Virus record (IMG/VR): IMGVR_UViG_2700989168_000004
Strand: one strand, 5' to 3'
Source of the DNA: a virus
Lineage: Duplodnaviria > Heunggongvirae > Uroviricota > Caudoviricetes
DNA length: 37,712 bases
The notes under the pieces are model-generated. The model was not told where the DNA came from. It saw only the letters and a list, made by a program, of their open reading frames with translations, and made no database searches. A program made the translations under genes and the position numbers. Each line of letters opens with the position of its first letter. Within the stretch, counting starts at the first letter, position 1. Shown here in pieces: positions 3,218 through 37,712 of the stretch.

Positions 3218-3243
3218 AGCGTCCTGTAGGGCGCTTTTTTGTT
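3218..3243 (+). terminator. rho-independent terminator after the 144-aa cargo gene
   Basis: Stem AGCGTCC / GGGCGCT (one G-U wobble) with 4-nt loop, followed by TTTTTTGTT on the plus strand; on the minus strand the same hairpin has a C-A mismatch and no U tract. Confidence 0.55.
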
Positions 3244-3320
3244 GCTAACGAATCATCCTGGACTTCATATGCCCCAGGCGGCTACTTCGTGGGCGTCCTG
3301 CCTGTTCGTTGTTTCGCTTG

Positions 3321-3353
3321 GGTACATTATGTATCTCAAAGGTACATTGTCAA
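3321..3353 (-). promoter_or_regulatory. PL-type early-left promoter with embedded operator (OL)
   Basis: Minus strand reads TTGACA - 16 nt - CATAAT; the spacer contains a near-palindrome ATGTACC-5nt-GATACAT sharing the GTAC half-site with the OR palindromes. Confidence 0.55.
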
Positions 3354-3355
3354 GT

Positions 3356-3380
3356 ATAAAAAAACCTGCCGAAGCAGGTT
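3356..3380 (-). terminator. rho-independent terminator downstream of the repressor gene
   Basis: Minus strand: AACCTGC-UUCG-GCAGGUU followed by UUUUUUAU, directly after the cI stop. Confidence 0.6.
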
Positions 3381-3392
3381 CATAAACATTGA

Positions 3393-4067
3393 TTAGGCTT
3401 TGATTTTGTATCTTCTTGGTTTTCCTGAGAAAATCACTGTACCAATTATAGAGCAATTACCGTTGATCTTAATGTAAGGCTCAGGCCAGTTTGGGTTTAA
3501 CGCTTTGAGATAACGCTGTGTCCCATCTTCTATCAACCTTTTGAAGGTGGTTTCGCCTGTATCGTGCATCAATGCAATAACGTCGTCACCGTGGCAGGCA
3601 GGTACTTCAGGATCGACAAAAATCATGTCTCCCGGGCGGTACTCATCAATCATTGAATCACCTATCACCCGCAAGATATAAGTCATTTCCCCACAGGGTA
3701 CAGGGCAGGGATACGTTTCTGCTGTGCTCAAATCAACCTCAGAATATCCAACTTCTTTCCATGCTCCGGCCTGTACCCATGATATGACAGGGACTAATGT
3801 GATTTGTTTATTAGTGATTGAAACATCAGGTTTTTTTGTGATGTTCGTTGTCTGGTGTTCTTGATCGAGCCATCCGACAGGCAGGTCGAAACATTTTTCG
3901 ATGTGTCGTGCCATGCTGTCACCGATATTTTTAGTAGCACCATCTCCCATAAACCTGCTGGTCTGGGTTGGCTCGCGATCAATCATAGTGGCAAAGGAAG
4001 AATTCCCGCCAACACCATCTCTCAGTTTTCTGGCGTTAGACCGCCGGATGTCATGGATTGTTTTCAT
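3393..4067 (-). CDS. cI: CI-type prophage repressor (N-terminal HTH, C-terminal S24 LexA-like peptidase domain)
   Basis: 224 aa; C-terminal segment with ISWVQAGAW...GDSM-like autocleavage domain pattern; divergent from a Cro-like gene across a region with palindromic operators. Confidence 0.85.
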   Translation of the reverse strand: MKTIHDIRRSNARKLRDGVGGNSSFATMIDREPTQTSRFMGDGATKNIGDSMARHIEKCFDLPVGWLDQEHQTTNITKKPDVSITNKQITLVPVISWVQAGAWKEVGYSEVDLSTAETYPCPVPCGEMTYILRVIGDSMIDEYRPGDMIFVDPEVPACHGDDVIALMHDTGETTFKRLIEDGTQRYLKALNPNWPEPYIKINGNCSIIGTVIFSGKPRRYKIKA

Positions 4068-4082
4068 AACGAAATTAAAACC

Positions 4083-4154
4083 CTTGTACCGTTAAGGTAC
4101 AAGTATCTTGAAGGTTCATTTCAATCATGTAATATGTACACCGGAGGTACATAT
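4083..4154. promoter_or_regulatory. OR-type operator region between cI and cro (two palindromes)
   Basis: Perfect 21-bp palindrome CTTGTACCGTTAAGGTACAAG (4083-4103) and inverted repeat ATATGTAC-7nt-GTACATAT (4132-4154) overlapping the cro RBS. Confidence 0.6.
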
Positions 4155-4157
4155 TGT

Positions 4158-4358
4158 ATGAAAGCGTATTGGGACTCTTTAACCAAAGAACAGCAGGGCG
4201 AGTTGGCCGGAAAAGTTGGCTCAACACCTGGCTACTTACGGCTGGTTTTCAATGGCTATAAAAAAGCCAGTTTTGTGCTGGCTAAAAAACTTGAGCAATG
4301 CACGTCAGGTGCAATTACGAAATCTGACTTAAGACCGGATATCTATCCGAAAGATTAG
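4158..4358 (+). CDS. cro: Cro-like HTH regulator (66 aa)
   Basis: Short ORF starting at ATG 4158 after GGAGG, divergent from cI; the longer track ORF from 3855 is antisense to cI and rejected. Confidence 0.7.
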   Translation: MKAYWDSLTKEQQGELAGKVGSTPGYLRLVFNGYKKASFVLAKKLEQCTSGAITKSDLRPDIYPKD

Positions 4359-4389
4359 CAGAACACTTTCAATTTTTAACCACAGAACG

Positions 4390-4953
4390 ATGAGGCTAAC
4401 CGTGGGTAAGCATCACTGGAAAATAGAAAAACAGCCTGAGTGGTACGTGAAAGCTGTCAGAAAAACTATCGCGGCGTTGCCGGGTGGTTACGCTGAAGCG
4501 GCTGACTGGCTCGATGTAACAGAAAACGCTTTATTCAACCGCCTTCGTGCAGATGGCGATCAGATTTTCCCGCTGGGATGGGCAATGGTTTTACAGCGTG
4601 CTGGTGGCACTCACTTCATTGCTGATGCTGTGGCGCAGTCTGCAAATGGCGTCTTTGTGTCTCTTCCTGACGTCGAGGATGTGGACAACGCCGATATCAA
4701 CCAACGCCTGCTGGAAGTCATTGAACAGATCGGCAGTTATTCAAAACAGATTCGTTCAGCAATTGAAGACGGTGTAGTGGAACCGCATGAGAAGACAGCA
4801 ATTAACGATGAGCTGTACCTCTCAATTTCGAAGCTGCAGGAGCATGCAGCACTGGTCTACAAAATCTTTTGCGTTTCAGAAAGTAGTGACGCCCGCGAGT
4901 GTGCAGCTCCGGGCGCCGTGGCGTGTCGTGACTGTGGAGAAACTAACGCATGA
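4390..4953 (+). CDS. early regulatory protein, possibly CII-like (Phage_CP76 / YdaT-like), tentative
   Basis: 187-aa ORF immediately after cro, the position occupied by cII-type regulators; family guess from memory only. Confidence 0.4.
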
Positions 4954-5288
4954 ACAGTTTAACAACACACTACCGTCGCTCGCAACTGATTGCGCTTCCT
5001 GTACCGGGTGGAAAAGCGAAGGTGGAGTATTGCTATGCAGTAAATGTACTAGGTGACAGGGAAATTGTAACCCACAGCTTTGCAGAGTGGGCTGTGGGTG
5101 ATTTCAACCGGCAGAAGGAGACAGTCCTTTGCGACAAGTTAACCGCTGGTTCAAAGATCACTACGGAGTGCCCGTCAGAGTCATTCGTTGGGAGCCGGAA
5201 ACACAACGGGTTATCTACCTCCGTGAAGGCTATGAGCATGAGTGCTTCAGCCCGCTCGAACAGTTTCGTTGTAAATTCAGGGAAATAG
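4950..5288 (+). CDS. hypothetical protein; frame uncertain (possible frameshift into an overlapping frame ending at 5308)
   Basis: ATG at 4952 overlaps previous stop; the C-terminal half is Ser-rich and low-complexity, whereas the alternative frame (AAGGAG RBS, TTG at 5129) gives a more protein-like sequence. Confidence 0.3.
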
Positions 5289-5297
5289 AGGTCGGTC

Positions 5298-6239
5298 ATG
5301 AGCACTAAATTAACCGGCTATGTATGGGATGGTTGCGCTGCGTCAGGCATGAAATTATCCAGCGTGGCAATTATGGCCCGCCTGGCTGATTTCAGTAATG
5401 ACGAAGGTGTGTGCTGGCCATCAATTGAAACCATTGCCCGTCAGATTGGCGCGGGGATGAGTACCGTCAGAACGGCTATCGCACGGCTGGAAGCAGAAGG
5501 CTGGTTAACGCGTAAGGCGCGTCGCCAGGGTAACCGCAATGCGTCGAATGTTTATCAGCTTAACGTTGCGAAGCTTCAGGCAGCGGCATTTTCTCAACTG
5601 TCAGATTCTGACCCGTCAAAATCTGACGCATCAAAATCTGACCCGTCAAAATTTGATGCGTCGAAATCTGGCAAAAAAGCGGGTTTTCACCCGTCAGAAT
5701 CTGGCGGGGATCCGTCAGTAAAATCAAAACATGATCCGTCAGATAAAAAAACTTCTCGTCCGGACGCTTCGCAACCGGACACGCAGACGGCTGAACAGGA
5801 GTTTTTAACTCGCCATCCTGATGCGGTTGTATTCAGCCCTAAAAAGCGCCAGTGGGGAACGCAGGATGATTTGACCTGCGCACAGTGGCTCTGGAAAAAA
5901 ATCATCGCCCTGTACGAGCAGGCCGCCGAATGTGACGGCGAGGTGGTTCGTCCCAAAGAACCGAACTGGACAGCCTGGGCAAACGAAATTCGCCTGATGT
6001 GTGTGCAGGATGGTCGTACTCACAAACAAATCTGCGAGATGTACAGCCGCGTCAGCCGCGATCCGTTCTGGTGCCGTAACGTGCTCAGCCCGTCGAAGCT
6101 GCGGGAAAAATGGGATGAGCTTTCCCTGCGCTTATCGCCGTCCGTCAGCACGTACACAGAAAAACGCGAAGACCCGTACTTCAAAGCCAGTTACGACAAC
6201 GTGGACTACAGCCAGATCCCGGCAGGATTCAGGGGGTGA
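5298..6239 (+). CDS. replication initiation protein (lambda O-like, N-terminal HTH) with internal origin iterons
   Basis: 313 aa; N-terminal HTH-like segment; central repetitive linker (SDPSKSDASKSDPSKFDASKS) encoded by tandem DNA iterons, as for lambda ori within O. Confidence 0.7.
   Translation: MSTKLTGYVWDGCAASGMKLSSVAIMARLADFSNDEGVCWPSIETIARQIGAGMSTVRTAIARLEAEGWLTRKARRQGNRNASNVYQLNVAKLQAAAFSQLSDSDPSKSDASKSDPSKFDASKSGKKAGFHPSESGGDPSVKSKHDPSDKKTSRPDASQPDTQTAEQEFLTRHPDAVVFSPKKRQWGTQDDLTCAQWLWKKIIALYEQAAECDGEVVRPKEPNWTAWANEIRLMCVQDGRTHKQICEMYSRVSRDPFWCRNVLSPSKLREKWDELSLRLSPSVSTYTEKREDPYFKASYDNVDYSQIPAGFRG
5601..5750. repeat. replication-origin-like iterons (about 13-bp units, GTCA(A/G)AAT(C/T)TGAC, 14-15 bp periodicity) followed by an A-rich tract
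   Basis: At least five tandem copies plus degenerate copies (CCGTCAGAATCTGG, CCGTCAGTAAAATC, CCGTCAGATAAAAAAAC) inside the O-like gene. Confidence 0.6.
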
Positions 6240-6241
6240 TC

Positions 6242-6730
6242 ATGAGTCTTTTGAATGAAGTTCAGAAATACATTGAAGCCCATCCGGGCTGTACTTCCGG
6301 AGATATTGCGGATGCTTTTGCCGGTTACTCACGGCAGCGCGTTCTGCAGTCAGCAAGCAAGTTACGTCAGAGTGGGCGTGTGGCTCACCGTTGTGAAGGA
6401 GATACACGCAGACATTTCCCGCGCCTGACTGAGAGAGCGCAGGAACCGGAACCACAACCAGTTCGTGAAACCAGACCTGTGCGCAATTTCTATGTCGGCA
6501 CTAACGATCCCCGTGTGATTTTGTGCCTGACCCGCCAGGCGGAAGAACTGGAGTCCAGGGGCTTATACCGTCGTGCTGCAACGGTGTGGATGGCGGCATT
6601 CCGTGAAAGCCACTCCCAGCCAGAACGAAACAATTTTCTGGCGCGTCGTGAGCGGTGCTTACGGAAAAGCAGCAAGCGCGCTGCATCGGGTGAAGAGTGG
6701 TATCTGTCAGGGAATTACGTGGGGGCTTAA
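6242..6730 (+). CDS. PerC-like transcriptional regulator (tentative)
   Basis: C-terminal region LESRGLYRRAATVWMAAF resembles the PerC/Pch family motif as I recall it; ATG at 6242 follows AGGGGG RBS and overlaps the O stop. Confidence 0.4.
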   Translation: MSLLNEVQKYIEAHPGCTSGDIADAFAGYSRQRVLQSASKLRQSGRVAHRCEGDTRRHFPRLTERAQEPEPQPVRETRPVRNFYVGTNDPRVILCLTRQAEELESRGLYRRAATVWMAAFRESHSQPERNNFLARRERCLRKSSKRAASGEEWYLSGNYVGA

Positions 6731-7383
6731 TGAGTAATAAATATTGCCAGGCGCTGGTGGAACTGCGGAACAAACCAGCCCATGAACTGAAGGAAGTGGG
6801 CGATCAGTGGCGCACGCCGGACAACATTTTCTGGGGAATTAACACCCTGTTTGGCCCGTTTGTTCTGGATCTGTTCACTGACGGTGATAACGCCAAATGT
6901 GCCGCGTATTACACGGCGGAAGACAACGCGCTGGCGCATGACTGGTCAGAACGTCTTGCGGAGCTTAAAGGTGCTGCCTTTGGTAATCCCCCATACAGCC
7001 GCGCCAGTCAGCATGAGGGGCAATACATCACCGGCATGCGTTACATCATGAAACATGCCAGTGCCATGCGTGATAAGGGCGGGCGCTATGTTTTCCTGAT
7101 CAAAGCTGCCACCAGCGAAGTGTGGTGGCCGGAAGATGCAGATCATATTGCTTTTATTCGCGGGCGTATTGGTTTTGAACTGCCTGTCTGGTTTATCCCG
7201 AAAGACGAGAAGCAGGTACCGACAGGAGCTTTTTTCGCTGGTGCTATTGCTGTTTTTGACAAGACCTGGAAGGGACCGGCAATCAGCTACATCGGGCGCG
7301 ATGAACTTGAGGCATGTGGTGAGGCGTTTCTGGCGCAGGTTCGCCAGCAGGCGGAAAAACTGGTCAGGGAGATGGCGGCATGA
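6730..7383 (+). CDS. phage N6-adenine DNA methyltransferase (Dam-type)
   Basis: Contains the catalytic NPPY motif (FGNPPYS) and phage Dam-family layout; start ATG overlaps previous stop (TAATG). Confidence 0.85.
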   Translation: MSNKYCQALVELRNKPAHELKEVGDQWRTPDNIFWGINTLFGPFVLDLFTDGDNAKCAAYYTAEDNALAHDWSERLAELKGAAFGNPPYSRASQHEGQYITGMRYIMKHASAMRDKGGRYVFLIKAATSEVWWPEDADHIAFIRGRIGFELPVWFIPKDEKQVPTGAFFAGAIAVFDKTWKGPAISYIGRDELEACGEAFLAQVRQQAEKLVREMAA

Positions 7384-7706
7384 CGACGTTAACTCAATGC
7401 CAGCAGCAGGTGCTGGATATGCTGATTTCTTATCAGAAAGAACGTGGCTTCCCGCCAACCAATCAGGAGGTGGCAACCATGCTGGGATACCGTTCGGTGA
7501 ATGCAGCGGTGGAGCATCTTCGCGCACTGGAGAAAAAAGGCGTCATCACGATAAAGCGTGGCGTGGCCCGGGGGATAACGCTTCATACCGCGGTGAAGGA
7601 CGACGACAGCGAGGCGGTCGGGATTATCCGCGCACTGCTTGCCGGTGAGGAAAACGCAAGGCTGCGTGCAACCCACTGGTTACATGAGAGGGACCTGAAA
7701 GTATGA
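7380..7706 (+). CDS. LexA-like DNA-binding domain protein lacking the S24 peptidase domain
   Basis: N-terminal 70 aa align by eye with the LexA winged-helix DBD (LexA ...[35 protein letters not shown] vs here FPPTNQEVATMLGYRSVNAAVEHLRALEKKGVITI); only 108 aa total. Confidence 0.6.
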   Translation: MTTLTQCQQQVLDMLISYQKERGFPPTNQEVATMLGYRSVNAAVEHLRALEKKGVITIKRGVARGITLHTAVKDDDSEAVGIIRALLAGEENARLRATHWLHERDLKV

Positions 7707-8092
7707 AGCTGATCCTGCCTTTTCCGCCCAGCGTGAACACGTACTGGCGACACCCCAACAAAGGGGCGTTTGCTGGTAAGAGCCTGATAAGCGCGGCGGG
7801 GCGAAAATTCCAGAGCGCGGCGTGCGCAGCAATAGTTGAGCAGTTACGTCGTCTGCCGAAACCAACGTCGGCACCTGCTTCAGTGGAGATCGTGTTGTTT
7901 CCTCCGGATAACCGGATCCGCGATCTGGACAACTATAACAAGGCGCTGTTTGACGCCCTGACTCACGCTGGTGTGTGGGAAGACGACAGTCAGGTGAAAA
8001 GAATGCTGGTGGAGTGGGGACCGGTTATCCCGGAAGGGAAGGTCGAGATCACTATCAGTAAGTACGAGAAAACGGCGGGTGCAGCCGCCTGA
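7703..8092 (+). CDS. rusA: RusA-family Holliday junction resolvase
   Basis: About 120-aa core with the conserved acidic DLDN motif and typical position in the nin-like region. Confidence 0.85.
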   Translation: MKLILPFPPSVNTYWRHPNKGAFAGKSLISAAGRKFQSAACAAIVEQLRRLPKPTSAPASVEIVLFPPDNRIRDLDNYNKALFDALTHAGVWEDDSQVKRMLVEWGPVIPEGKVEITISKYEKTAGAAA

Positions 8093-8111
8093 TTAAGAGG
8101 AGAAACGAAGT

Positions 8112-8921
8112 ATGAATAATCTGATGGTCATTGATGGTATTGAAGTTCGTCGTGATGCTTATGGGCGTTACAGCCTGAACGATCTGCATCGCGCAGCAGT
8201 AGCATCTGGTGCAAATGCCAGAACCAAGGAGCCGGGAAAGTTTCTTTCCAGCCAACAAACTGTTGAGCTTGTTCATGAATTGACCAACACCCAGAATTTG
8301 GGTGTTGACCCGGTGAGTGTGATTCATGGGGGAAATGAACGGGGAACGTATGTCTGCAAGGAACTGGTGTATGCCTATGCAATGTGGATCAGCCCGTCAT
8401 TCCATCTGAAGGTGATCCGTACTTTCGATATGGTAACCAGCGCACCGGAAAAATTATCCGGACAGGCTGCTGACAAGATGCAGGCTGGCGTGATCCTGCT
8501 GGACTTTATGCGCCGGGAGTTAAACCTGTCTAACTCTTCAGTGCTTGGTGCCTGTCAGAAACTCCAGGAGGCTGTTGGCTTACCGAATCTGGCACCGCGC
8601 TATGCCATTGATGCTCCTGCTGACGCGCCTGATGGCTCAAGCCGCCCCACGCTGTCACTGAGTGCACTGCTGAAGCAGTATGGTATCCGCCTAACAGCTA
8701 ATCAGGCATATCACCAGATGGTGAAACTGGGGATCGTCGAGCAGCGCGAACGATACAGCCGTACCGCGATTAACAACATCAAAAAATTCTGGTCGCTGAC
8801 AGCGAAAGGCTGCATGTTCGGCAAGAACATCACCAGTCCCGCAAATCCGCGCGAGACGCAGCCGCACTTCTTCGAATCCCGATTCCCTGAGCTGTTAAAG
8901 CTGCTCGATACCGTTCATTGA
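8112..8921 (+). CDS. KilA-N domain protein (putative antirepressor-like)
   Basis: N-terminal segment MNNLMVIDGIEVRRDAYGRYSLNDLHRAA resembles KilA-N domains; 269 aa. Confidence 0.55.
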   Translation: MNNLMVIDGIEVRRDAYGRYSLNDLHRAAVASGANARTKEPGKFLSSQQTVELVHELTNTQNLGVDPVSVIHGGNERGTYVCKELVYAYAMWISPSFHLKVIRTFDMVTSAPEKLSGQAADKMQAGVILLDFMRRELNLSNSSVLGACQKLQEAVGLPNLAPRYAIDAPADAPDGSSRPTLSLSALLKQYGIRLTANQAYHQMVKLGIVEQRERYSRTAINNIKKFWSLTAKGCMFGKNITSPANPRETQPHFFESRFPELLKLLDTVH

Positions 8922-8922
8922 G

Positions 8923-9918
8923 GTGACCGTGAGAGCACTACTGACCCCTGAAATTGCCCCGCGTATGGGGATCGTATTGTTCAGACCAGGTTCAGAGCTG
9001 ATGCCCCTGTTTATGCAGGGGCGTGTCCTGCTGGAGCCTGAGCCGGAACGTTATTCATCTTTCGCCAGTGGTGCTGTTCCGGCGGCATCACAACCGCTGG
9101 CGGATGATCCTGCCGTTCGGGCCGTGTTCCGCAATGAGGCAGTGATCCGTCGTGCTGGTGGCGTGGAATGTCTTGAAAGCTGGTTACTTCGTGAAAAAGG
9201 CTGCCAGTGGCCTCATTCCGACTGGCACAGCGAGAACATGACCACAATGCGACACGCGCCGGGTGCAATCCGTCTGTGCTGGCACTGCGATAACCAGCTG
9301 CGCGATCAGTTCACGGAACGGCTGGAATCAATGGCAACGGATAACTGTGCCCGCTGGGTGTTGTCTGTTGTGCGTCGGGATCTCGGTTTTGATGACAGTC
9401 ACGTTGTGACAATGCCGGAACTGTGCTGGTGGCTGGTTCGTAATGACCTGGCGGGAGCCTTGCCGGAAAGTGCAGCCCGTAAGGCACTGAGATTACCGAA
9501 GCCTGTTGTGCCGTCTGTCACCCGGGAAAGTGACCTTGTTCCTTCGGTTCCTGCCACCAGCATCATCCAGGATAAAGTGAAAAAGGTGCTGGCGCTGAAA
9601 GTGGATCCGGAGTCGCCGGAGTCTTTTATGTTACGCCCAAAACGTCGCCGCTGGGTTAACGAAAAGTACACGCGCTGGGTTAAGACACAGCCGTGTGCAT
9701 GTTGTGGAAAGCCTGCTGATGATCCCCACCACCTGATAGGCCACGGTCAGGGCGGAATGGGTACAAAAGCGCATGACCTCTTTGTATTGCCTTTGTGCAG
9801 AAAGCATCACGACGAGCTGCATGCGGATACCGCGGCATTTGAAGAGAAGTATGGCTCCCAGCTGGAGTTGATATTTCGTTTTATCGATCGTGCGCTGGCA
9901 ACTGGCGTGCTGGCCTGA
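8923..9918 (+). CDS. DUF968-family protein with C-terminal Cys/His (HNH-like) motif
   Basis: C-terminal [21 protein letters not shown]...CRKHHDELH pattern; start codon uncertain (GTG at 8923 or 8929, ATG at 8965). Confidence 0.5.
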
Positions 9919-9935
9919 TTTTGTGGAGAAAGTTG

Positions 9936-10313
9936 ATGCGTGATATTCAGATGGTTCTTGAGCGTTGGGGAGCGTGGGCGGCTAATAATCATGAAGATGT
10001 GACCTGGTCGTCCATTGCCGCCGGTTTTAAGGGATTAATTCCTTCAAAAGTAAAATCTCGCCCACAATGTTGTGACGATGACGCGATGATCATTTGCGGG
10101 TGCATGGCCCGTCTGAAAAAGAACAACAGCGATTTGCATGATTTATTGGTGGACTATTATGTCGGCGGCATGACTTTTATGGCGCTTGCACGTAAGCATG
10201 GGCGATCTGATTGTTGGGTTGGCAGGATGCTCCAGAAAGCTGAGGGCGTAGTGGAGGGTATGCTGATGGTGTTGGATCTCCGATTGGAGATGGATGCTGA
10301 TTGTTCGAAATAA
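9936..10313 (+). CDS. late-gene antitermination protein Q
   Basis: About 125 aa with conserved Cys cluster ([16 protein letters not shown]), located immediately upstream of a short leader plus terminator and the late region; GGAGA RBS before ATG 9936. Confidence 0.75.
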
Positions 10314-10412
10314 TTAAAGGAAAAGTTGCTGTCTGATTGTCATTAGTCTAACATTTTAAATGTTGGAATCGCAACGTAGTTATTACCATATAACAGCTTG
10401 TTTCCTGATTTA

Positions 10413-10441
10413 GCCAGCCTCCCCAAAGGCTGGTTTTTTTC
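10413..10441 (+). terminator. tR'-type rho-independent terminator downstream of the Q gene (late promoter/qut region at about 10320-10410)
   Basis: Stem CCAGCC / GGCTGG with 8-nt loop followed by TTTTTTTCT. Confidence 0.6.
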
Positions 10442-10468
10442 TAATAAGTATTATTTCGGGTAGGGATT

Positions 10469-10993
10469 TTATTGTTTAACCCATAATAATTCATTGACAT
10501 TGAATCCCAACTTTTGAGCGGTTCGCACATAGTCTGCTTTTACTTTATCTGGAATAGTTGGGGTCCTTGCCAGAATCCATAGGTATTCTCTGTTCGGACC
10601 ACTGACAAGAGCATACTTATACTCATCATCCAGTTTGATTACATTATAGCCACCATAGAAGGGGCCAAAAAACGAAACCTTCAATGCTGCAGTTTTAGTA
10701 TCTCCAGTAAAGTATGCTTTACCTTCGCTCTCGCTCCATTTATTTTTCGTTGGATCGTATCCACGGTTAAGTACACGAATCCCTCCGTCGTTCCGTTTTC
10801 CATAAGTAGCGCTGACCTGTTCCAGATCACGTTCGAACCGGTTCTCGAGGCGAGCTATTTCATACCATTTTCCGAGGTAGCGGTTGGCGTCAAAATTTGT
10901 AATCGGCTGCACACCTTTAGGTGGTGTCGGGGCCTTACATGCTATAAGAGTGAAAGAGAGTGCAATGCCAGTCAACACAGGCCATAACTTCAT
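10469..10993 (-). CDS. blc: outer-membrane lipocalin (Blc homolog) lipoprotein
   Basis: Signal peptide with lipobox (LIAC), and long colinear matches to E. coli Blc as recalled (NFDAxRYLGxWYEIAR, KVSFFGPFYGGYNVI, YLWILxRTP). Confidence 0.9.
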   Translation of the reverse strand: MKLWPVLTGIALSFTLIACKAPTPPKGVQPITNFDANRYLGKWYEIARLENRFERDLEQVSATYGKRNDGGIRVLNRGYDPTKNKWSESEGKAYFTGDTKTAALKVSFFGPFYGGYNVIKLDDEYKYALVSGPNREYLWILARTPTIPDKVKADYVRTAQKLGFNVNELLWVKQ

Positions 10994-11185
10994 AATAAAT
11001 CCTGTACTTTTGATAGTTGAGAGTAAGTATGAAAGATAGATGATTACGACCGATCACTTAAAGAACTTTCATACTATATTAGGAATAGTCCATAACAGAA
11101 AAATTGTCAGTGATGACGCCAGAAAGGCAATTTATTCCGTGCACTACACAGTTTATGTGTTAATGAATTAGTCAAGGGGGAGAAT

Positions 11186-12145
11186 ATGATAAAAAAACCT
11201 GTGATTGGAATCAGCGGTTGTTTGGCCGGTTCTGCTGTTCGTTTTGATGGTGGTCACAAAAGAGCTGACTTTTTAATGGACAAATTAGTGGAATGGGTAA
11301 CATTCAGACCAGTATGTCCGGAAATGGCTATAGGGCTGCCAGTTCCGCGTCCTGCTCTACGTCTTGTGCGCTCGACGCAAGGAAATATACGGATGTGTTT
11401 CAGCCACGACCAGAATGAGGATGTGACAGAGAGAATGACAGAGTTTAGTCGTTCTTATATGGACAAATTAAAGGATGTATCGGGGTTTGTGGTTTGTGCT
11501 AAATCTCCCAGCTGTGGCATGGAGCGCGTGCGTGTCTATGATGAAAATGGTAATCGAGGTCGTAAAGATGGAGTGGGACTATTTACGAGTACTTTGATGG
11601 AAAAGTTTTCCTGGCTACCGGTTGAAGAGGATGGGCGATTACATGATCCAGTGCTTCGTGAGAATTTTGTTGAAAGAGTTTTTGCTTTGCATGAGCTCAA
11701 TCACCTTTACAAGGAGAAATTATCAAGAAGAGAGTTATTAGCTTTTCATAGTCGTTATAAGCTTCAGTTGTTGTCGCATAGTCAGGCAGGCTATAAAGAT
11801 ATGGGACCATTTGTGGCTGCAATACACGAGTGGGCGGACCTTGAATCATACTTTGAGGTGTATCGTGATAAGCTGATGGCGATTCTCAGAAAACCTGCAT
11901 CACGTAAAAATCACACGAATGTGCTGATGCATATACAGGGGTATTTTAGTAACTACTTAAGTACACGCCAGCGTAAAGAGTTGAGCGAGGTTATACTTAA
12001 CTATCGTTCTGGCACATTACCTCTTCTTGCGCCGTTGACTCTGCTGAAGCATTATCTGGGTGAGTATCCTAATGATTACTTGCTTACACAGAATTACTTC
12101 GATCCCTATCCGGACGAACTGGCTCTAAGACTGATGGTAAATTAA
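11186..12145 (+). CDS. DUF523 (TudS-like thiouracil desulfurase family) - DUF1722 fusion protein (tentative)
   Basis: N-terminal GISGCLAG..VRFDGG and further conserved Cys residues resemble DUF523; C-terminal half resembles YbgA/DUF1722; RBS GGGGGAG before ATG. Confidence 0.5.
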   Translation: MIKKPVIGISGCLAGSAVRFDGGHKRADFLMDKLVEWVTFRPVCPEMAIGLPVPRPALRLVRSTQGNIRMCFSHDQNEDVTERMTEFSRSYMDKLKDVSGFVVCAKSPSCGMERVRVYDENGNRGRKDGVGLFTSTLMEKFSWLPVEEDGRLHDPVLRENFVERVFALHELNHLYKEKLSRRELLAFHSRYKLQLLSHSQAGYKDMGPFVAAIHEWADLESYFEVYRDKLMAILRKPASRKNHTNVLMHIQGYFSNYLSTRQRKELSEVILNYRSGTLPLLAPLTLLKHYLGEYPNDYLLTQNYFDPYPDELALRLMVN

Positions 12146-12496
12146 TTGTATGCGATATCATCCAAAAGGATGAGTTCCTGCATGCAGGATATTTACAATC
12201 GTAAAAACTACACTATGATACCCAGAGTGTCAGTTTGTATAAAAACTCTGTTTACGCTGAAGAAACAATTGAGATGCAACTTAAAGTTGGTAAACATGCC
12301 AGTCAAAATATATAATATTATGATTCCACGCAGCTATATATAATATAACAGATTGGTTTAATAATTTGTCTTTGTGAGTTAAATACATAATTTTATACTT
12401 GTGATGCAATGAAATTTTCCTTATTGTTGAACTTGCGAATATTGATTTTCCACCTATACTTACCTGGTGTAACCCCAATGATATCAGGTGGATAAT

Positions 12497-13228
12497 ATGC
12501 CATACATATGTTCTATCATTTTGGTGTTGAACTCGTTTGATGTCCGAATTGGTAAAGAAGATATTTTGTTTAAAAAAGGAAGTGCTGTTCTCATTGATTA
12601 CAATTTAAAAGATTTTTTTTCATCAAATATAGATCATGTAATGATCGTAGATGTTGAAGAGAAAACAGTTAATGATTTCTTTAAAAGCAACACACTCTCA
12701 CCTTTTTCTGTAAGAAGGTTTTATCCGGCATACTTGATGGTGGAATGTGAAGATTTTTCATTGTTAAAGAACTTGATTGCATGCTTGAATTGTGATGGCA
12801 GAACTGTGGATTTTGTTAGAAATCAAATATCACTTGCATGTCTTGCTATCTTATCTTCAGAGAAAATAGTGCAAAGTTTTTTATTTGGATGTCTTAATAG
12901 TTTAGGAAGTAAAGTTAAGGCTATTATTCACACGGATATATCTGCAGCATGGAGACTTTGTGATATATCTTCAAGACTGTATCTGAGTGAAAGTCTGTTA
13001 AAAAGAAAATTAAAGCACGAAGGCTTATCATTTAGTAAGTTAATTCTTGAAGAGCGAATGGTGATGGCGGAAAGGTTATTAAGCTACAATTTATATTCTG
13101 TTGGAAAAGTTGCTGAGATATGCGGTTATGAAAACACGTCATATTTTGTGAGTGTTTTCAGAAGATATTTTGGTGTTCCTCCCCATCAATATTCATCAAG
13201 ATTTTTTTTAGAAAAAGACATGATGTAA
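12497..13228 (+). CDS. AraC-family transcriptional regulator
   Basis: C-terminal dual-HTH AraC signature (...KVAEICGYENTSYFVSVFRRYFGVPPHQY); gene is strongly AT-rich; ATG 12497 after AGGTGG. Confidence 0.85.
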   Translation: MPYICSIILVLNSFDVRIGKEDILFKKGSAVLIDYNLKDFFSSNIDHVMIVDVEEKTVNDFFKSNTLSPFSVRRFYPAYLMVECEDFSLLKNLIACLNCDGRTVDFVRNQISLACLAILSSEKIVQSFLFGCLNSLGSKVKAIIHTDISAAWRLCDISSRLYLSESLLKRKLKHEGLSFSKLILEERMVMAERLLSYNLYSVGKVAEICGYENTSYFVSVFRRYFGVPPHQYSSRFFLEKDMM

Positions 13229-13289
13229 CGTGATGCGTTTTAATGATTTTGTAATTTTCGTATTTGATAATTGTATGATGCTTTCAGCT

Positions 13290-13321
13290 ACGCCAGAATA
13301 ATCGCTGGCGTTTTTCTTTTT
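13290..13321 (+). terminator. rho-independent terminator after the AraC-family gene
   Basis: Stem ACGCCAG / CTGGCGT followed by TTTTTCTTTTT. Confidence 0.6.
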
Positions 13322-13416
13322 GAATAGATGTTCAAGCCTTACGCTAATGTAACTTCTATACCTTTCCTCTTCGTTCCGAACCGTGTACACCATCCGTTAT
13401 TTGCGGAGGTGAGGCT

Positions 13417-15368: not shown

Positions 15369-15776
15369 ATGCCACCACGAACCCCAAAAGCCTGCCGTGT
15401 TCGCGGCTGCCGCCATACCACAACTGNNNNNNNNNNNNNNNNNNNNNNNNNNNNNNNNNNNNNNNNNNNNNNNNNNNNNNNNNNNNNNNNNNNNNNNNNN
15501 NNNNNNNNNNNNNNNNNNNNNNNNNAGCAATACAAGCCGGGCCAGTCCAGACACCAGCGCGGTTATGGTTCGAAATGGGATGTTATCCGTGAACGTGTGC
15601 TCAAGCGTGACAAAGGACTGTGTCAGTTATGTCTGCGTGGTGGTGTGGTACGTGAGGCGAAAACCGTTGACCACATCATCCCTAAAGCGCATGGCGGCAC
15701 TGATGCCGACAGCAATCTGCAGAGCCTGTGCTGGCCGTGTCATAAGGCGAAGACGGCCCGTGAACGGTTGAAGTAA
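15369..15776 (+). CDS. phage HNH endonuclease (packaging-associated); interrupted by N run 15427-15525
   Basis: C-terminal HNH motif (VDHIIPKAHGG...N...CWPCH); N-terminal CRVRGC zinc-finger-like start; immediately upstream of terminase genes. Confidence 0.8.
   Translation: MPPRTPKACRVRGCRHTTTXXXXXXXXXXXXXXXXXXXXXXXXXXXXXXXXXXQYKPGQSRHQRGYGSKWDVIRERVLKRDKGLCQLCLRGGVVREAKTVDHIIPKAHGGTDADSNLQSLCWPCHKAKTARERLK
15427..15525. other. run of 99 N (assembly gap or masked bases)
   Basis: Literal n characters in the sequence. Confidence 1.
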
Positions 15777-15901: not shown

Positions 15902-16487
15902 ATGGCTGGAACGGCGGGGCGTTCCGGGCGTCGCCCCAAGCCAACGGCGCGCAAGGCGCTGNNNNNNNNNNNNNNNNNNNNNNNNNNNNNNNNNNNNNNN
16001 NNNNNNNNNNNNNNNNNNNNNNNNNAACCCCGGCAAGCGAGCCCTGAACAAAGATGAACCTGTTTTTACGCCCATCAAAGGTGTTGAGCCACCGGAGTGG
16101 TTCGCAGAAGAAGATCTCCCTCTCGCCACGATCATGTGGCAACTGACAACCAAAGAACTCTGCGGTCAGGGCCTGCTGTGCGTGACTGACCTTGCGGTAC
16201 TTGAGCGGTGGTGCGTGGCCTATGAGTTCTGGCGACGTGCCGTGAAAAATATTGCCAGACAGGGCAACACCATCACCGGTGCAATGGGTGGCATGGTTAA
16301 AAATCCGGAGCTGACCGCCAAGAAAGAACAGGAGTCCGAGATGAGCAGCACGGGGGCAATGCTCGGACTCGACCCCAGCAGCCGCCAGCGTCTGATTGGC
16401 CTGGCGGGGCAGAAGAAAGCNNNNNNNNNNNNNNNNNNNNNNNNNNNNNNNNNNNNNNNNNNNNNNNNNNNNNNNNNNNNNNNNTAA
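15902..16487 (+). CDS. terminase small subunit (P27-family-like); interrupted by two N runs, frame inferred
   Basis: Starts MAGTAGRSGRRPKPTARKAL (typical of this family) at ATG 15902; resumes after the gap in the track frame; stop TAA directly after the second N run. Confidence 0.7.
15962..16025. other. run of 64 N
   Basis: Literal n characters. Confidence 1.
16421..16484. other. run of 64 N
   Basis: Literal n characters. Confidence 1.
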
Positions 16488-23728: not shown

Positions 23729-25272
23729 CACCATTCCGTCGAATACGCTGGTTCCGTTGTTTTATGCGGAAATGGATAACCAGGCGGCGAATACTGCACA
23801 GGACAGCGGAGCATCGCTGCTGATTGGTCATGCCAATAACGGTGCAGAGATTGTTGCCAACAGTCTGGTGCTGATGCCATCGGCAGACTATGCACGCCAG
23901 ATTTGTGGTGCGGGAAGTCAGCTGGCGCGTATGGTCGAGGCTTATCGCCAGACCGACCCGTTTGGTGAACTGTATGTGATTGCCGTTCCTGAATCCACGG
24001 GCGCGGCGGCAACAGTTACGCTGACGGTGACCGGCGCGGCAACCGAAACCGGCACGGTGAATGTTTATGTGGGACGTACCCGCGTGCAGGCACCGGTGAC
24101 CAACGGCGATAACGTCGCGACGATTGCCAGCAGTATCCAGGATGCCATCAATGCCGTTCCGACCCTGCCGTTTACGGCTTCATCTTCGGCAGGCGTGGTC
24201 ACACTGACCGCGCGTCATAAGGGGCTTTGCGGGAATGAAATTCCTGTCAGCCTCAATTACTACGGCTTTGGTGGGGGCGAAGTGCTGCCAGCGGGCGTAC
24301 AGATTGCCGTGGCGACGGGTACCGCCGGAACGGGCGCTCCTGTTCTCACCGGCGCGGNNNNNNNNNNNNNNNNNNNNNNNNNNNNNNNNNNNNNNNNNNN
24401 NNNNNNNNNNNNNNNNNNNNNNNNNNNNNNNNNNNNNNNNNNNNNNNNNNNNNNNNNNNNNNNNNNNNNNNNNNNNNNNNNNNNNNNNNNNNNTGGTGAC
24501 CGAGATGAACGATACCAGCGGTCGCTGGAGCTATGCGCGTCAGCTGTATGGTCATGTGTACACGGCAAAGATCGGCACGCTGTCAGAACTGGTGACCGCA
24601 GGTGACCAGTTTAACCAGCAGCACATTACCCTGGCGGGATACGAAAAAGAGACCCAGACGCCTGCCGACGAGCTGGCGGCAAGCCGTACCGCCCGCGCAG
24701 CGGTGTTTATTCGCAACGATCCGGCACGTCCCACGCAGACCGGTGAGCTGGTGGGTATGCTGCCTGCGCCGAAGGGGAAACGGTTCACGATGACCGAACA
24801 ACAGACCCTGCTGTCTCATGGCGTGGCAACGGCGTATGTCGAAAGCGGGGTGCTGCGCATTCAGCGTGATGTCACCACGTACAGGAAAAACGCTTACGGT
24901 GTTGCGGATAACAGCTACCTCGACAGCGAGACGCTGCATACCAGCGCGTATGTACTGCGCAAACTGAAATCCGTCATTACCAGTAAGTACGGGCGTCACA
25001 AGCTTGCCAGCGACGGTACCCGCTTTGGTCCCGGTCAGGCGATTGTCACCCCGGCGGTGATCAAAGGGGAACTGCTGGCAACCTACCGTCAGCTTGAGCG
25101 TGCGGGGATCGTGGAAAACTACGAACTTTTTAAGCAGTACCTGGTTGTGGAGCGTGATGCCAGCGATCCGAACCGCCTGAACACGCTGTTCCCGCCTGAC
25201 TATGTTAACCAGTTGCGTGTCTTTGCCGTGGTTAACCAGTTCCGTCTTCAGTATTCAGAGGAGTCCGCATAA
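23712..25272 (+). CDS. contractile tail sheath protein (Mu gpL-like); interrupted by N run 24358-24493
   Basis: N- and C-terminal parts lie either side of the gap in different nominal frames; combined size about 520 aa. Confidence 0.85.
24358..24493. other. run of 136 N
   Basis: Literal n characters. Confidence 1.
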
Positions 25273-32935: not shown

Positions 32936-33586
32936 ATGCATCGTATAGACACGAAAACCGCGCAGAAGGATAAGTTCGGCGCGGGTAAGAACGGTTTTAC
33001 CCGTGGTAACCCCCAGACTGGCACGCCTGCCACCGATCTGGATGATGACTACTTTGACATGTTGCAGGAGGAGCTTTGCAGCGTGGTGGAGGCATCCGGT
33101 GCCAGCCTGGAGAAGGGGCGGCACGATCAGTTGCTTACCGCACTTCGCGCGCTGCTGTTAAGCCGCAAGAATCCGTTTGGCGATATCAAATCGGATGGCA
33201 CGGTGAAAACGGCTCTCGAAAACCTTGGTTTGGGAGAAGCAGCTAAAAGGAATGTAGGTACAGGGGCGAATCAGATACCTGATATGAGCCTGTTCGCGTC
33301 AAGTAATACCGCAACGGCTGCTGCGCAAAAATTTCCGTCTGGATTAATTTTACAGTGCGGTCAGTTGAATGGCTCCCCTAATGTATCTTCAACATACGGG
33401 ATGAGGTTCCCGATGACATTCTCAAGAGTCCTTGCTGTCACAGTTACATTGAACGTTACTGGCGCGTCAGGGCAGCCGACTGTATCGGCGACAAATGTCC
33501 ATAACACTGGATTTGATATTACAGTGTCGCCCGGTTCAGGATATGGTTCATCTGCTGATGCGTATTACATTGCAATGGGATATTAA
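32936..33586 (+). CDS. tail fibre protein (conserved N-terminal anchor, variable C-terminus)
   Basis: N-terminus [22 protein letters not shown]... resembles the conserved baseplate-attachment region of enterobacterial tail fibres. Confidence 0.7.
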
Positions 33587-33590
33587 CGAA

Positions 33591-33941
33591 ATGTCATATT
33601 TTTATTCTGCATCGACAAACGGATTTTATTCGACTGAATTTCACGGCACCAATATTCCTGATGATGCAGTGGAAATCTCGGAATCAGAGTGGAAAACACT
33701 GATTAATTCGCAGAGTGTAACAAAAATGATTACCTGTGGTGAGAATGGTCACCCTGTCATTGTTGACCGTCCTTCTCCAACACCAGAACAATTAGCCTTA
33801 ATAAATAATGAAAAGAAATCTGCACTGATAGCAGAGGCAACGAATGTAATAGCGCCGCTTCAGGATGCGGTTGATTTAGATATGGCAACAGATGATGAAA
33901 CGAAACTGTTACTGGCATGGAAAAATATCGCGCACTATTGA
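33591..33941 (+). CDS. tail fibre assembly protein (Tfa-like)
   Basis: Starts MSYFYSASTNGFY, typical of Tfa chaperones; ATG 33591 preferred over the track start at 33495, which overlaps the fibre gene. Confidence 0.7.
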   Translation: MSYFYSASTNGFYSTEFHGTNIPDDAVEISESEWKTLINSQSVTKMITCGENGHPVIVDRPSPTPEQLALINNEKKSALIAEATNVIAPLQDAVDLDMATDDETKLLLAWKNIAHY

Positions 33942-34167
33942 TGCGTGTTGATATAAAAAATACAGAGTGGCCGAAAAAACCAGAGAGCAATCTATAAGAG
34001 AAAATTCGTTATTGGATGAAAAGCGAGACATCTAATTATAACAGCATATGGTTTTTCTAATGATAGCTCCTTCAACTTTATAGTATCTCATATACTCTAG
34101 AATATAGCTCTAAATGAGGGTTTGTTGTATACGGCAACCACTCCATTTTTATTCCTGATAGGGATAT

Positions 34168-34189
34168 AACCCGTCGAAAAAGACGGGTT
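34168..34189. terminator. hairpin between convergent tail-fibre module and gtr cassette (possible bidirectional terminator)
   Basis: AACCCGTC-GAAAAA-GACGGGTT perfect 8-bp stem; weak U tracts. Confidence 0.3.
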
Positions 34190-34230
34190 ATTCATTCGTT
34201 AGTGTGGTTTATATGGTAGGGGGCAATTTA

Positions 34231-35751
34231 CTATAGGTTAAGTTTTTTGTTAAATACTAATATTACTCTTCCTTCAAAGTTCAAAACTTCGTCAGGCTTA
34301 CCTAATTGTTCTTGAATACCTGCAAGGCAGGATGTCATTTCTTTACATCGTTCAGGTTCGTTAGCTATGGAAACTGCTATAAACTGTCGCTCAGGAGCAG
34401 AATTGAACGCCTCCTTGCTATGCCAAGAAGCCAGTGTCTGTTGTCTCACGCCAGTAAAGTTAATTTTCCCCGAATCAGCATTAAAGAAAACAGGAGTTAT
34501 CTGTATGTCCCCACCAGATAACCAATTTACAGTCATTGACAAATCCCAAAAAGAGCCGTACCCATAATGGAGATTATTTTTTTTTAAAAAATCAATGTAT
34601 GATTTAACAATCTTCTCCTGATCGTGTAATGGTGAAGCATTATTTGTGTAAGATTTAATTGAACTGATCGAAAATAAAAATGCGATTAGATAAAATAATA
34701 TCTTTGCTTTTGTTGATGTACCGATACAGCACAATATCAGTGCGAAACAGGTAACATTCATAAAGAAACGCATGCTAATATAATCAGGGGATTTATAGCT
34801 CAGTATGAATGATGAGACAATACCTGCGATAGATAATAATGAAAATAACACAATATAAATACGGTATGTGTTTTTTTTATTGTCCGATAAAACAAACCAC
34901 GCAGATGTAATAATGGCAATGAACCAAATGACAAATGAGGCGTAAGATGTTGCGTTATTGTCGACAACTAATAAATTAAGACTTTTTCCTATTAACAGAA
35001 TGCACCATTTTGCATTTAAAATCATATCATTGAGTGATACAATTTCAAATTGGTGGGGAGGTATGTTAAGTAGATTTTGCAATACATTGGAAAGAGAGAT
35101 TAAACATGCAAATAGTATTAATGCAGTATGCTTAAATAATTTTTTATCCCATACAGAGAATAAAAAGTAAGATATTAATAGTGGAATAAAAAATGCAGCT
35201 GTAAACCACGGATCGGATACGCTGGAAAATAATGCTGTCAAACTTAAGAGGAGAGTGATAAATATATTTTTATACTGTATGTTGAAAACAGATATAAGCA
35301 AGCATAAAAAGCCGAAAGCGTTTGTTGAATTATGAGAAAAAGGATGTGATACAAAACCATAAGTGTATGAAAAATATGGTATTAGAGATAGAAGTATAAT
35401 AGAAAATAAAGCAGGGGTAAACCCGAATGCCTTACGTAGCGTTAACATCGCTGCTATTACTATAGCAATAGAGAAAACTGCAGTTGATAATCTTAATGCT
35501 ACTAAGCCATCATCACCTAACAGCATATAAAATAAAAAGTTAATTGGGTAAACGGTGAAATACCAATTATCCACGGTTGGTTTCCAGTCGTGGATTGATG
35601 ATATACCATTCTCTAAAATATGCCTCCATACAATTGGGCTGTTAGCAACATCCGGTTCAACTGGAAAGTATCTGGTAGTCAACCAAGTTATTAGGAGTGC
35701 TGATAAAGCCAATAATATTTTTAATGCTGATTGTTTAATACATATGCTCAT
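34231..35751 (-). CDS. serotype-specific O-antigen glucosyltransferase (Gtr type-specific, polytopic membrane protein)
   Basis: 506 aa, many hydrophobic helices, AT-rich, directly downstream of gtrA-gtrB on the same strand; type cannot be assigned by eye. Confidence 0.75.
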   Translation of the reverse strand: MSICIKQSALKILLALSALLITWLTTRYFPVEPDVANSPIVWRHILENGISSIHDWKPTVDNWYFTVYPINFLFYMLLGDDGLVALRLSTAVFSIAIVIAAMLTLRKAFGFTPALFSIILLSLIPYFSYTYGFVSHPFSHNSTNAFGFLCLLISVFNIQYKNIFITLLLSLTALFSSVSDPWFTAAFFIPLLISYFLFSVWDKKLFKHTALILFACLISLSNVLQNLLNIPPHQFEIVSLNDMILNAKWCILLIGKSLNLLVVDNNATSYASFVIWFIAIITSAWFVLSDNKKNTYRIYIVLFSLLSIAGIVSSFILSYKSPDYISMRFFMNVTCFALILCCIGTSTKAKILFYLIAFLFSISSIKSYTNNASPLHDQEKIVKSYIDFLKKNNLHYGYGSFWDLSMTVNWLSGGDIQITPVFFNADSGKINFTGVRQQTLASWHSKEAFNSAPERQFIAVSIANEPERCKEMTSCLAGIQEQLGKPDEVLNFEGRVILVFNKKLNL

Positions 35752-35753
35752 GG

Positions 35754-36674
35754 TTATTTTCTACCTTTCTTCAAAATATACTTAGGTCTTGATTTTGTTT
35801 CTAAGTAAATTCTACCTATATATTCACCGAGAACACCAATCCCGATCAGTTGCACTCCACCCAAGAAAAGTATTGATACAAGCAGGGAGGGATACCCGCG
35901 TACTGGGTTACCAAAGACAAGGGTGTCTATAATCATCCATGCACCATATAAAAATGAAATGCTTGCAACAAACAAGCCTATATAAGTCCATACGCGAAGA
36001 GGAAAGGTTGAAAAACTTGTGATACCTTCCAGTGCCAGATTCCATAATTTCCAGCCATTAAATTTTGAGATGCCAGCAACACGCTCTGCGCGTACATATT
36101 CAACGACATCCGTCTGACCACCCACCCAGCTCAGTATGCCTTTCATGAAAAGATTGCGCTCAGGCAACAGTTTAATGTTCTCCACAACCTCACGAGACAT
36201 GAGTCGAAAATCTCCGACATTTTCCTCGATCTTTGGGGTGCTTATTTTGTTGTGTAATTTATAGAACCACTCAGCTGTCTTACGTTTCAGTCGTCCATCA
36301 GTTGAGCGGTCTGAACGTTTAGCAAGCACCATGTCAGCACCTGCCTGCCACTTTTCAATAAGATGAGGGATAACCTCAATTGGGTCTTGCAGGTCGACAT
36401 CAATAGGAATTACAGCATCGCCGCTTGCATGGTCTAACCCTGCAAATAAGGCTGGTTCTTTACCAAAGTTGCGTGTAAATGACAGCGGAACAACTAGCGG
36501 GTCTGAAACAGCCAGCGCGTTAATAATTGACTCTGTGGCATCTTTACTTCCGTCATTTATGAATACAATTTCTACTTCATATGGCTTCAACTCTTGGAAT
36601 TCACGTACCGTTTTATAGAAAACAGGTATCGCTTCTTCTTCATTGAAGACAGGAACGACAAGAGATATTTTCAT
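35754..36674 (-). CDS. gtrB: bactoprenol glucosyltransferase GtrB (GT2 family)
   Basis: 306 aa with GT2 signatures ([21 protein letters not shown]) and C-terminal TM segments. Confidence 0.9.
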
Positions 36675-37033
36675 TTCGCATCCCTAAAGACAATGAACTT
36701 TGAATAGACGAAACCGCACACCAGACTGATGGCGGAGAAGGTGATAAGAGTGACTATTGGAGGAAGTGAGCATTTATCAGCTGCCCAACCAACAATCACA
36801 CTCAATATTCCCATAAATCCCACGTATAACATGTAGCGCATCGCTGTAGTCGATGCTTTGAATGTGAATCTTGCATTCGCGAAGAAGCTAAAGCTCACAG
36901 CCACTACGAAACCTGTGAAGTTTGCCAGAGCCTGACTGGTATGTGCGGCATAGATACATACACCAAAAACCACCCAGTGTATAAGTGTGTTCAGCACACC
37001 TATAGATGTGTACTTTACAAATAACTTTAACAT
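36671..37033 (-). CDS. gtrA: GtrA flippase-like small membrane protein
   Basis: 120 aa, near-identical by recall to serotype-converting phage GtrA ([27 protein letters not shown]...). Confidence 0.9.
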
Positions 37034-37234
37034 TTATTTAATCAATGAGCTCTGAAAGGCATGAAGTCTATCATCCAAGTCTCAATTGATCGATACTTGC
37101 TATGTCTGATGAGACAAAACTGAGACACATAAGGCCTCACAATGGCTTGCAAGGCTTTACATGTTTTGATGTGGTGGGACGTGTGAGCGCAGTGTTGATG
37201 GGATAATCCTTTGAATTACAAGCGGATTCTTATA

Positions 37235-37280
37235 ATTCGTAATGCGAAGGTCGTAGGTTCGACTCCTATTATCGGCACCA
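37235..37280 (+). other. 46-bp att core identical to the 3' end of tRNA-Thr (thrW-type), not a complete tRNA
   Basis: ATTCGTAATGCGAAGGTCGTAGGTTCGACTCCTATTATCGGCACCA matches the anticodon-loop-to-CCA portion of E. coli thrW as recalled; the 5' half of the tRNA is absent upstream. Confidence 0.7.
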
Positions 37281-37294
37281 TTTAAATCAATAAG

Positions 37295-37669
37295 TTACCT
37301 CGCATTTAAGTAAACTACGTTCTCCTCTTGTGCCGTATTTGTGCCATTGCGACTTATAATCGCATCGATTTTGCTCGCGTGCTCGGTAAGATGCCCGGCT
37401 GAAAGGTGGGCGTATCTTTGAACCATTTCGAGAGTTTCCCATCCTCCCATCTCTTTAAGCGCAAGAAGAGAGACACCGGACTGAACCAGCCAGCTTGCCC
37501 AGGTATGCCTCAGGTCATGGAAGCGGAAGTTGCTAATGCCTGCCCGCTTTAACGCTCCCTTCCATGCCTTGTTGCTGTCGGTTCTCATCTTCCTTACCGC
37601 TGCTGTTTTTGTTCCGTCGCTTCGGTAGGCAGGTTTGGTGTGGACAAACACCCTGAGGTGTACTGGCAA
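37295..37669 (-). CDS. tyrosine integrase, C-terminal catalytic fragment (N-terminal part missing or frameshifted)
   Basis: Contains HxLRH ([10 protein letters not shown]) and catalytic Tyr context (RYAHL); track start is a TTG, and in-frame stops lie just upstream (37679-37681, 37697-37699). Confidence 0.55.
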
Positions 37670-37712
37670 TAGCGGACACTACCATTTGTTCTTTTTTTAA
37701 GCAGCCATCTGA

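Follow-up and report, generated by a model that had tools for sequence, protein, structure and literature searches.

The stretch of DNA considered here (the window) is the whole of a 37,712-nucleotide (nt) Caudoviricetes record from IMG/VR, IMGVR_UViG_2700989168_000004. Close to its right-hand end, at 34231-37033, it carries three minus-strand open reading frames (ORFs) that make up a gtrA-gtrB-gtr(type) cassette for glucosylation of the bacterial O-antigen. In the direction of reading, and with the third gene under the name that we argue for below, they are as follows:

36671..37033, minus strand: gtrA, 120 amino acids; proposed undecaprenyl-phosphate-glucose flippase
35754..36674, minus strand: gtrB, 306 amino acids; bactoprenol (undecaprenyl-phosphate) glucosyltransferase, family GT2
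34231..35751, minus strand: gtrI, 506 amino acids; serotype 1 (type I antigen) specific O-antigen glucosyltransferase, predicted GT-C fold

The cassette and its counterpart in phage SfI

A preliminary description of this DNA, made from its letters, had recognized such a cassette, with near-canonical GtrA and GtrB and an AT-rich third gene that was left unassigned to any type. The architecture holds up well. The ORF list places the three genes exactly where they had been put, and they follow one another tightly in the same orientation, with the start of gtrB lying over the stop of gtrA in a 4-bp overlap (ATGA) and a gap of just 2 nt between gtrB and gtrI. GtrA matches Pfam PF04138 (GtrA_DPMS_TM) over residues 7-116 with an expectation value (E) of 1.9e-14, and PHROG 2224, “GtrA-like O-antigen conversion,” with E=1.2e-69. 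The N-terminal GT2 domain of GtrB is recognized by Pfam PF00535 (Glycos_transf_2; residues 4-167, E=7.4e-31), the PHROG GtrB family covers residues 1-303 (E=5.6e-182), and two hydrophobic segments are visible at the C-terminus of the translation. Neither GtrA nor GtrI has an NCBIfam model.

The two conserved products are indeed near-canonical. GtrA is 100% identical to the GtrA of SfV and SfIV and 77.5% identical to that of P22. Across the Shigella phages GtrB shows 93-97% identity (97.4% to SfV, 97.1% to SfII, and 93.1% to SfIV), with 87.7% to P22. The third gene is as AT-rich as had been said: its guanine-plus-cytosine content is 33.4%, against 42.0% for gtrB, 43.0% for gtrA, and 54.3% for the late region, the whole window standing at 49.6%.

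What the third gene is becomes clear from a megablast search of 50,697 phage records. The stretch 34000-37300 is 100.0% identical over its whole length to Enterobacteria phage SfI (JX509734 / NC_027339), in whose record the matching genes run gtrI, gtrB, gtrA, and are followed by the attP core and int. Base-for-base identity extends from about 33921 to 37282 and includes the spacer downstream of gtrI, the leader upstream of gtrA, and the attachment (att) core; the first mismatch falls at 37283, and in a longer alignment the SfI match ends at 37298. Compared directly, gtrA, gtrB, and gtrI are each identical to their SfI counterparts in both DNA and protein, with gtrI agreeing at 100% over 1521 bp and 506 amino acids. 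A tblastn search with the 506-residue protein gives the same answer, 100% identity over 506 residues to SfI.

Among the same records, tblastn found no relatives of GtrI other than SfI and a match to the C-terminal half of the protein in Escherichia phage N7. This N7 segment (MH717096, 18715-19344), a gene with no annotation beyond “hypothetical protein,” shares 39% identity with GtrI over residues 291-504, which comprise the last membrane helices and the periplasmic domain.

Given identity of this extent, the three genes are almost certainly gtrA-gtrB-gtrI, the operon with which Shigella flexneri phage SfI brings about serotype conversion, located at the att-proximal end of an SfI-derived prophage in tRNA-thrW. 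Nothing in the sequence argues against the GtrI assignment. The cassette is, moreover, already known, as the gene, the product, the linkage, and the phage have all been described. The SfI cassette was reported by Sun et al. 2013 (PMC3636060), where Adhikari et al. 1999 is cited for the first cloning of gtrA-gtrB-gtrI, from strain Y53.

One could still ask whether the third gene encodes a new, uncharacterized serotype-specific transferase responsible for an undescribed O-antigen modification. It is unlike GtrII, GtrIV, GtrV, and P22 GtrC (best blastp E=0.043; global identity 17-23%), and no Pfam or NCBIfam model scores above threshold. This idea nevertheless has next to no chance of being right, because DNA and protein are 100% identical to SfI gtrI, for which product and serology are established (PMC3636060, PMC3306764). 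In other words, the transferase that had been called unassigned is identical to a characterized type. The phylogeny against characterized Gtr enzymes that had been suggested as a check is of little use here: the literature describes the Gtr(type) proteins as having no sequence relationship to one another (PMC3688519), with which our GtrI result agrees, and since GtrI has no significant similarity to the other Gtr(type) enzymes such a tree would be uninformative, and it is identity with SfI that decides the assignment.

Predicted fold of GtrI and modification of the O-antigen

A family search with GtrI gathered 64 clusters from across the Enterobacterales, at 33-70% identity, in genera that include Rahnella, Erwinia, Pantoea, Yersinia, Hafnia, and Sodalis. 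An AlphaFold2 model of GtrI, built from a 61-sequence alignment, reached a predicted local distance difference test score (pLDDT) of 94.8 and a predicted template modeling score (pTM) of 0.92. Its multi-pass membrane part and periplasmic domain superpose on solved GT-C structures. When the model was compared with the PDB using Foldseek, ranks 1-28 were all occupied by GT-C enzymes (E 2e-6 to 4e-3, template modeling score 0.47-0.55, probability 1.0), among them STT3, PglB, ArnT, ALG9, ALG12, DPY19, AftB, and AftD. The sugar donors of these enzymes are lipid-linked (polyprenyl-phosphate or -diphosphate), and the enzymes act on the extracytoplasmic side, as the Gtr mechanism would require of GtrI.

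The model places GtrI in the GT-C fold, which is consistent with the accepted three-step mechanism. Two acidic residues, D34 and D61, are invariant in the 61 family sequences and lie in the first extracytoplasmic loop, after the first transmembrane helix and before the second (residues 2-27 and 67-78 of the model, respectively). Since GT-C enzymes have catalytic acidic residues in that loop, D34 and D61 are candidates for the catalytic residues of GtrI. In E. coli, the RefSeq name of the protein is “glycosyltransferase family 39 protein,” despite a score against the Pfam model PMT_2 that is below threshold (given further on).

According to the accepted model of Gtr action, summarized in PMC2909390 and PMC3259042, GtrB would work as a GT2 enzyme at the cytoplasmic face of the membrane, transferring glucose from uridine diphosphate-glucose to undecaprenyl phosphate. 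GtrA, a small four-helix membrane protein, would then move the undecaprenyl-phosphate-glucose to the periplasmic face. There GtrI, as a multi-pass GT-C enzyme with a C-terminal periplasmic domain, would add the glucose in alpha-1,4 linkage to the N-acetylglucosamine (GlcNAc) of the O-antigen repeat. The product would be the type I antigen of serotypes 1a, 1b, 1c, and 1d, and the modified O-antigen would both change the serotype and protect the lysogen from SfX and other phages that depend on the O-antigen.

The literature on SfI provides the biology behind this scheme. The phage converts S. flexneri serotype Y to 1a and serotype X to 1d; in the type I modification, a glucosyl group is joined through an alpha-1,4 linkage to GlcNAc in the O-unit; and the gtr genes adjoin attP in a phage that integrates into tRNA-thrW beside proA (PMC3636060). 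The block to superinfection that had been anticipated for the cassette is also backed by experiment, in that SfI lysogens resist SfX and SfI does not lysogenize modified serotypes. More specifically, SfX was unable to infect the 1a strains that SfI conversion had produced, SfI was able to infect X strains, and SfI failed to lysogenize ten serotypes that were already modified (PMC3306764, PMC3636060). The linkage, the serotype conversion, and the SfX resistance that we ascribe to this cassette are taken from the literature for the identical sequence.

In practical terms, the cassette determines serotype: typing of the source strain, or of any lysogen of this prophage, would be expected to give S. 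flexneri serotype 1, with other modifications setting whether this is 1a, 1b, 1c, or 1d. It is therefore relevant to sequence-based serotype prediction, vaccine coverage, and phage susceptibility, and it opens no new question.

The gtrA leader and the prophage junction

The features that surround the cassette, given from its upstream side outward and then at its downstream end, are the following:

37058..37096, minus strand: inferred core of the gtr promoter, placed indirectly, by homology to the P22 Pgtr core
37096..37097, minus strand: junction of an 87-bp gap relative to P22, from alignment; removes OxyR half-sites A and B together with GATC1-3
37121..37155, minus strand: hairpins, candidate terminator of int-direction transcription (terminator-like sites 37155-37134 and 37139-37121)
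37235..37280, plus strand: att core of 46 bp, equal to the 3' end of tRNA-thrW; attR-side prophage junction
37295..37653, minus strand: integrase remnant, C-terminal catalytic part, not SfI int (Pfam Phage_integrase, E=3.7e-19)
37654..37712, no strand assigned: 59-bp end of an IS3-family insertion sequence (IS), truncating the integrase at 37653/37654
34166..34191, minus strand: hairpin with a 10-bp stem, uncertain candidate for the operon terminator (sequence, with minimum-free-energy and centroid folds)

The preliminary description had counted one GATC upstream of gtrA and judged Dam/OxyR phase variation unlikely, and both statements stand. The GATC, at 37088-37091, is the sole one between gtrA and the end of the window. 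Dam/OxyR phase variation needs four GATC sites with overlapping OxyR sites (PMC2909390, PMC3688519). In the P22 leader, the four GATC lie 135, 122, 71, and 58 nt before the ATG and are accompanied by three half-sites 32 bp apart. The window leader has one GATC, 58 nt before the ATG and equivalent to P22 GATC4, in the -35 region, and one OxyR half-site, which agrees with 8 of the 10 specified consensus positions. When aligned, the two leaders are homologous on both sides of the 87-bp gap, and the window leader is left with a single GATC because the 87 bp holding P22 GATC1-3 are absent. The alignment and the two counts thus agree that the P22-type module is missing.

SfII and SfIV likewise have this 261-bp leader with its one GATC, and the SfV leader has none. 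Compared with window positions 37034-37294, the 261-bp leader of SfV (3746-4006 of the compared SfV locus) has lost even the remaining GATC. As the leader is short and GATC-poor in SfII, SfIV, and SfV too, this is a general property of Shigella gtr phages. We would give even odds to the wider proposal that the Shigella-type gtr leader (SfI, SfII, SfIV, SfV) is the P22-type phase-variable leader minus exactly 87 bp, and that the prophage is an SfI recombinant, perhaps with different immunity. If this is true, the operon would be locked ON through loss of the 87 bp, which in P22 contain GATC1-3 and half-sites A and B. We found no statement of this loss from Shigella gtr leaders in the searchable literature.

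Within the promoter core, the -35 region overlaps the GATC at 37088-37091 and a -10-like TAGACT is found at about 37065-37070. Transcription is predicted to start near 37058 on the minus strand; in P22, the start is 33 nt downstream of GATC4 (PMC2909390). Most likely, the operon is transcribed from this simple promoter, homologous to the P22 Pgtr core and working without a Dam/OxyR switch, and its expression is probably constitutive, that is, not phase-variable. The hairpins at 37121-37155 sit between the att core and this promoter, and in the SfII record the corresponding stretch, 87-133 nt upstream of gtrA, is annotated as a putative rho-independent terminator. The hairpin at the other end of the operon (34166-34191) lies 40 nt downstream of the gtrI stop, has no clear U tract, and was not flagged by a terminator scan.

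The att core gives one exact match to the published SfI core, ATTCGTAATGCGAAGGTCGTAGGTTCGACTCCTATTATCGGCACCA (sequence from PMC3636060). ARAGORN found no tRNA at the att site, where just the 3' 46 bp of thrW are present, as expected for an attR-side junction. The cassette thus adjoins a thrW-type att core and, from 37295, an integrase fragment with 98-99% identity to int from mEpX2, HK75, and SfX, all of them phages that integrate at thrW. The terminal 59 bp that cut this fragment short are a 100% match to multi-copy elements in Shiga toxin (Stx) phages, which there adjoin ORFs for a 100-residue OrfA and a 272-residue OrfB transposase. We take the element to be IS600.

A putative int and IS600 have been described downstream of attB in S. 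flexneri, together with tandem SfI-SfX integration (PMC3306764). The junction that runs from gtrA through att and the int fragment to the IS recurs at 99.87% identity in three complete chromosomes (L010, L012, and L013), in all of which an IS replaces everything to the left of window position 33074, a cryptic form of the prophage. The arrangement agrees with the published int/IS600 order (PMC3306764) and with cryptic gtrI prophages (PMC5596473), and it is the standard S. flexneri serotype 1 junction.

Several points weigh against parts of the account given so far, in which an intact SfI operon is read from a simple promoter and its products modify the O-antigen in three steps. A generic sigma-70 scan found no strong site in the gtrA leader and no more sites than in shuffled sequence, so that the position of the promoter rests on homology to P22. 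GtrI scores 16.7 bits against Pfam PMT_2 (E=0.0087), below the cut-off of 26.1, and a sequence-only search of solved structures with the 61-member GtrI profile gave nothing relevant, the one match being spurious (E=0.11); membership of the GT-C class therefore rests on the predicted fold. That GtrA is the flippase is an assumption of long standing. Finally, altered O-antigen receptors as the cause of SfX resistance, and of the failure of SfI to lysogenize modified serotypes, are the interpretation of the authors concerned (PMC3306764, PMC3636060).

Two other views of how the cassette is expressed also deserve attention. Expression might be phase-variable after all, by way of the residual half-site and GATC or through some other mechanism. 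The 8/10 OxyR-like half-site does overlap the remaining GATC at the -35 region, and methylation of P22 GATC4 itself affects promoter activity (PMC2909390). OxyR, however, binds as a dimer of dimers, for which two half-sites must lie next to each other, whereas A, B, and GATC1-3 are all absent here; P22 promoter-only and promoter plus BC constructs were uniform and showed no phase variation (PMC2909390); and SfV does without even the remaining GATC. We regard phase variation as quite improbable on these grounds. We are at least as doubtful that the cassette is a silent relic, unexpressed or nonfunctional in its host, within a decaying prophage. An IS has truncated the flanking integrase, the same junction is found in chromosomes where the phage genes left of 33074 have been replaced by an IS, and in serotype 1c strain Y394 gtrI lies within a cryptic prophage (PMC5596473). 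Yet none of the three ORFs is disrupted, and each has the very sequence that it has in the functional phage; the leader with the promoter shows no difference from SfI as far as the att core, and the window retains the SfI late module in full. Even the gtrI clusters of Y53 and Y394, although cryptic, continue to bring about type I modification (PMC3636060, PMC5596473), and a silent relic therefore strikes us as very improbable. An intact operon read from a simple promoter remains the account that we prefer.

The prophage and comparison with known systems

The window is written in prophage order, not in phage order. From 13386 to 37298 it follows SfI at 97-100% through the modules for lysis, packaging, head, tail, and gtr, and the early, immunity, and replication region (1-13385) gave no megablast match to SfI. 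This left-hand part resembles the early region of SfIV (98%) and E. coli phages vB_EcoM-689R6 and 720R4. As judged by these alignments, the prophage is a recombinant that combines the late and gtr module of SfI with an early/immunity module of non-SfI type, and it may be an SfI variant with different immunity.

Some smaller observations on the window can be added. It contains four runs of N, 363 bases in all (15427-15525, 15962-16025, 16421-16484, and 24358-24493), which are either masked stretches or scaffold gaps and which account for breaks in the alignment with SfI. There are no tRNA genes in the window; SfI has tRNA-Asn and tRNA-Thr after Q. An indel relative to SfI at 33915-33920 changes the end of the tail-fiber-assembly gene (ORF 33495-33941), the product of which has 148 amino acids in the window, 167 in the SfI annotation, 146-151 in related loci, and 132 in L016. 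We also considered whether the region from the tail genes to gtrI might conceal an O-acetyltransferase or another moron, as is the case in SfII and Y394, and rejected this, since the 289-bp spacer has no notable ORF.

In the index of the assembly collection, 1671 blocks contain exactly this GtrI protein. The gtrI cassette is rare in E. coli: of 5426 complete genomes, 3 carry it, with an identity of 99.5-99.7%. In the one that was inspected, strain YZ22MPE54 (NZ_CP139337.1; 6001-9349 of the compared locus), the cassette occupies the right end of an SfI-like prophage and adjoins the paoABCD operon.

SfI itself (JX509734) differs from the window to the right of the att core, where it carries its own int in place of the mEpX2/SfX-type integrase remnant cut by the IS. 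That int stands beside the att core in the SfI record, unlike in the window, because the window is in prophage order. The gtr cassettes of SfII, SfIV, and SfV (and SfX) have the same architecture and the same position beside attP/int. In SfII, SfIV, and SfV, GtrA is 99-100% and GtrB 93-97% identical to the products encoded here, and the same 261-bp leader is found, with 0-1 GATC; the third gene is unrelated in sequence (17-23% global identity), and its product differs in acceptor sugar and linkage.

GtrI, as modeled, resembles solved GT-C enzymes (ArnT, PglB/STT3, ALG9/ALG12, DPY19, and AftB/AftD) in having a membrane domain of many helices at its N-terminus and a periplasmic domain at its C-terminus. 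Sequence identity to them is just 10-14%, and the acceptor differs, in that GtrI would act on the O-antigen repeat and the solved enzymes act on lipid A, protein, or an N-glycan precursor.

The gtrABC operon of P22 (Broadbent et al. 2010, PMC2909390) has the same gene order and the same thrW att core region, with int on the far side. Its GtrC is unrelated to GtrI in sequence. In its leader, GATC4 and the -35 region lie at the same 58 nt from the ATG as the GATC of the window, but P22 has a Dam/OxyR phase-variable promoter, whereas the window is without the 87 bp that carry GATC1-3 and half-sites A and B.

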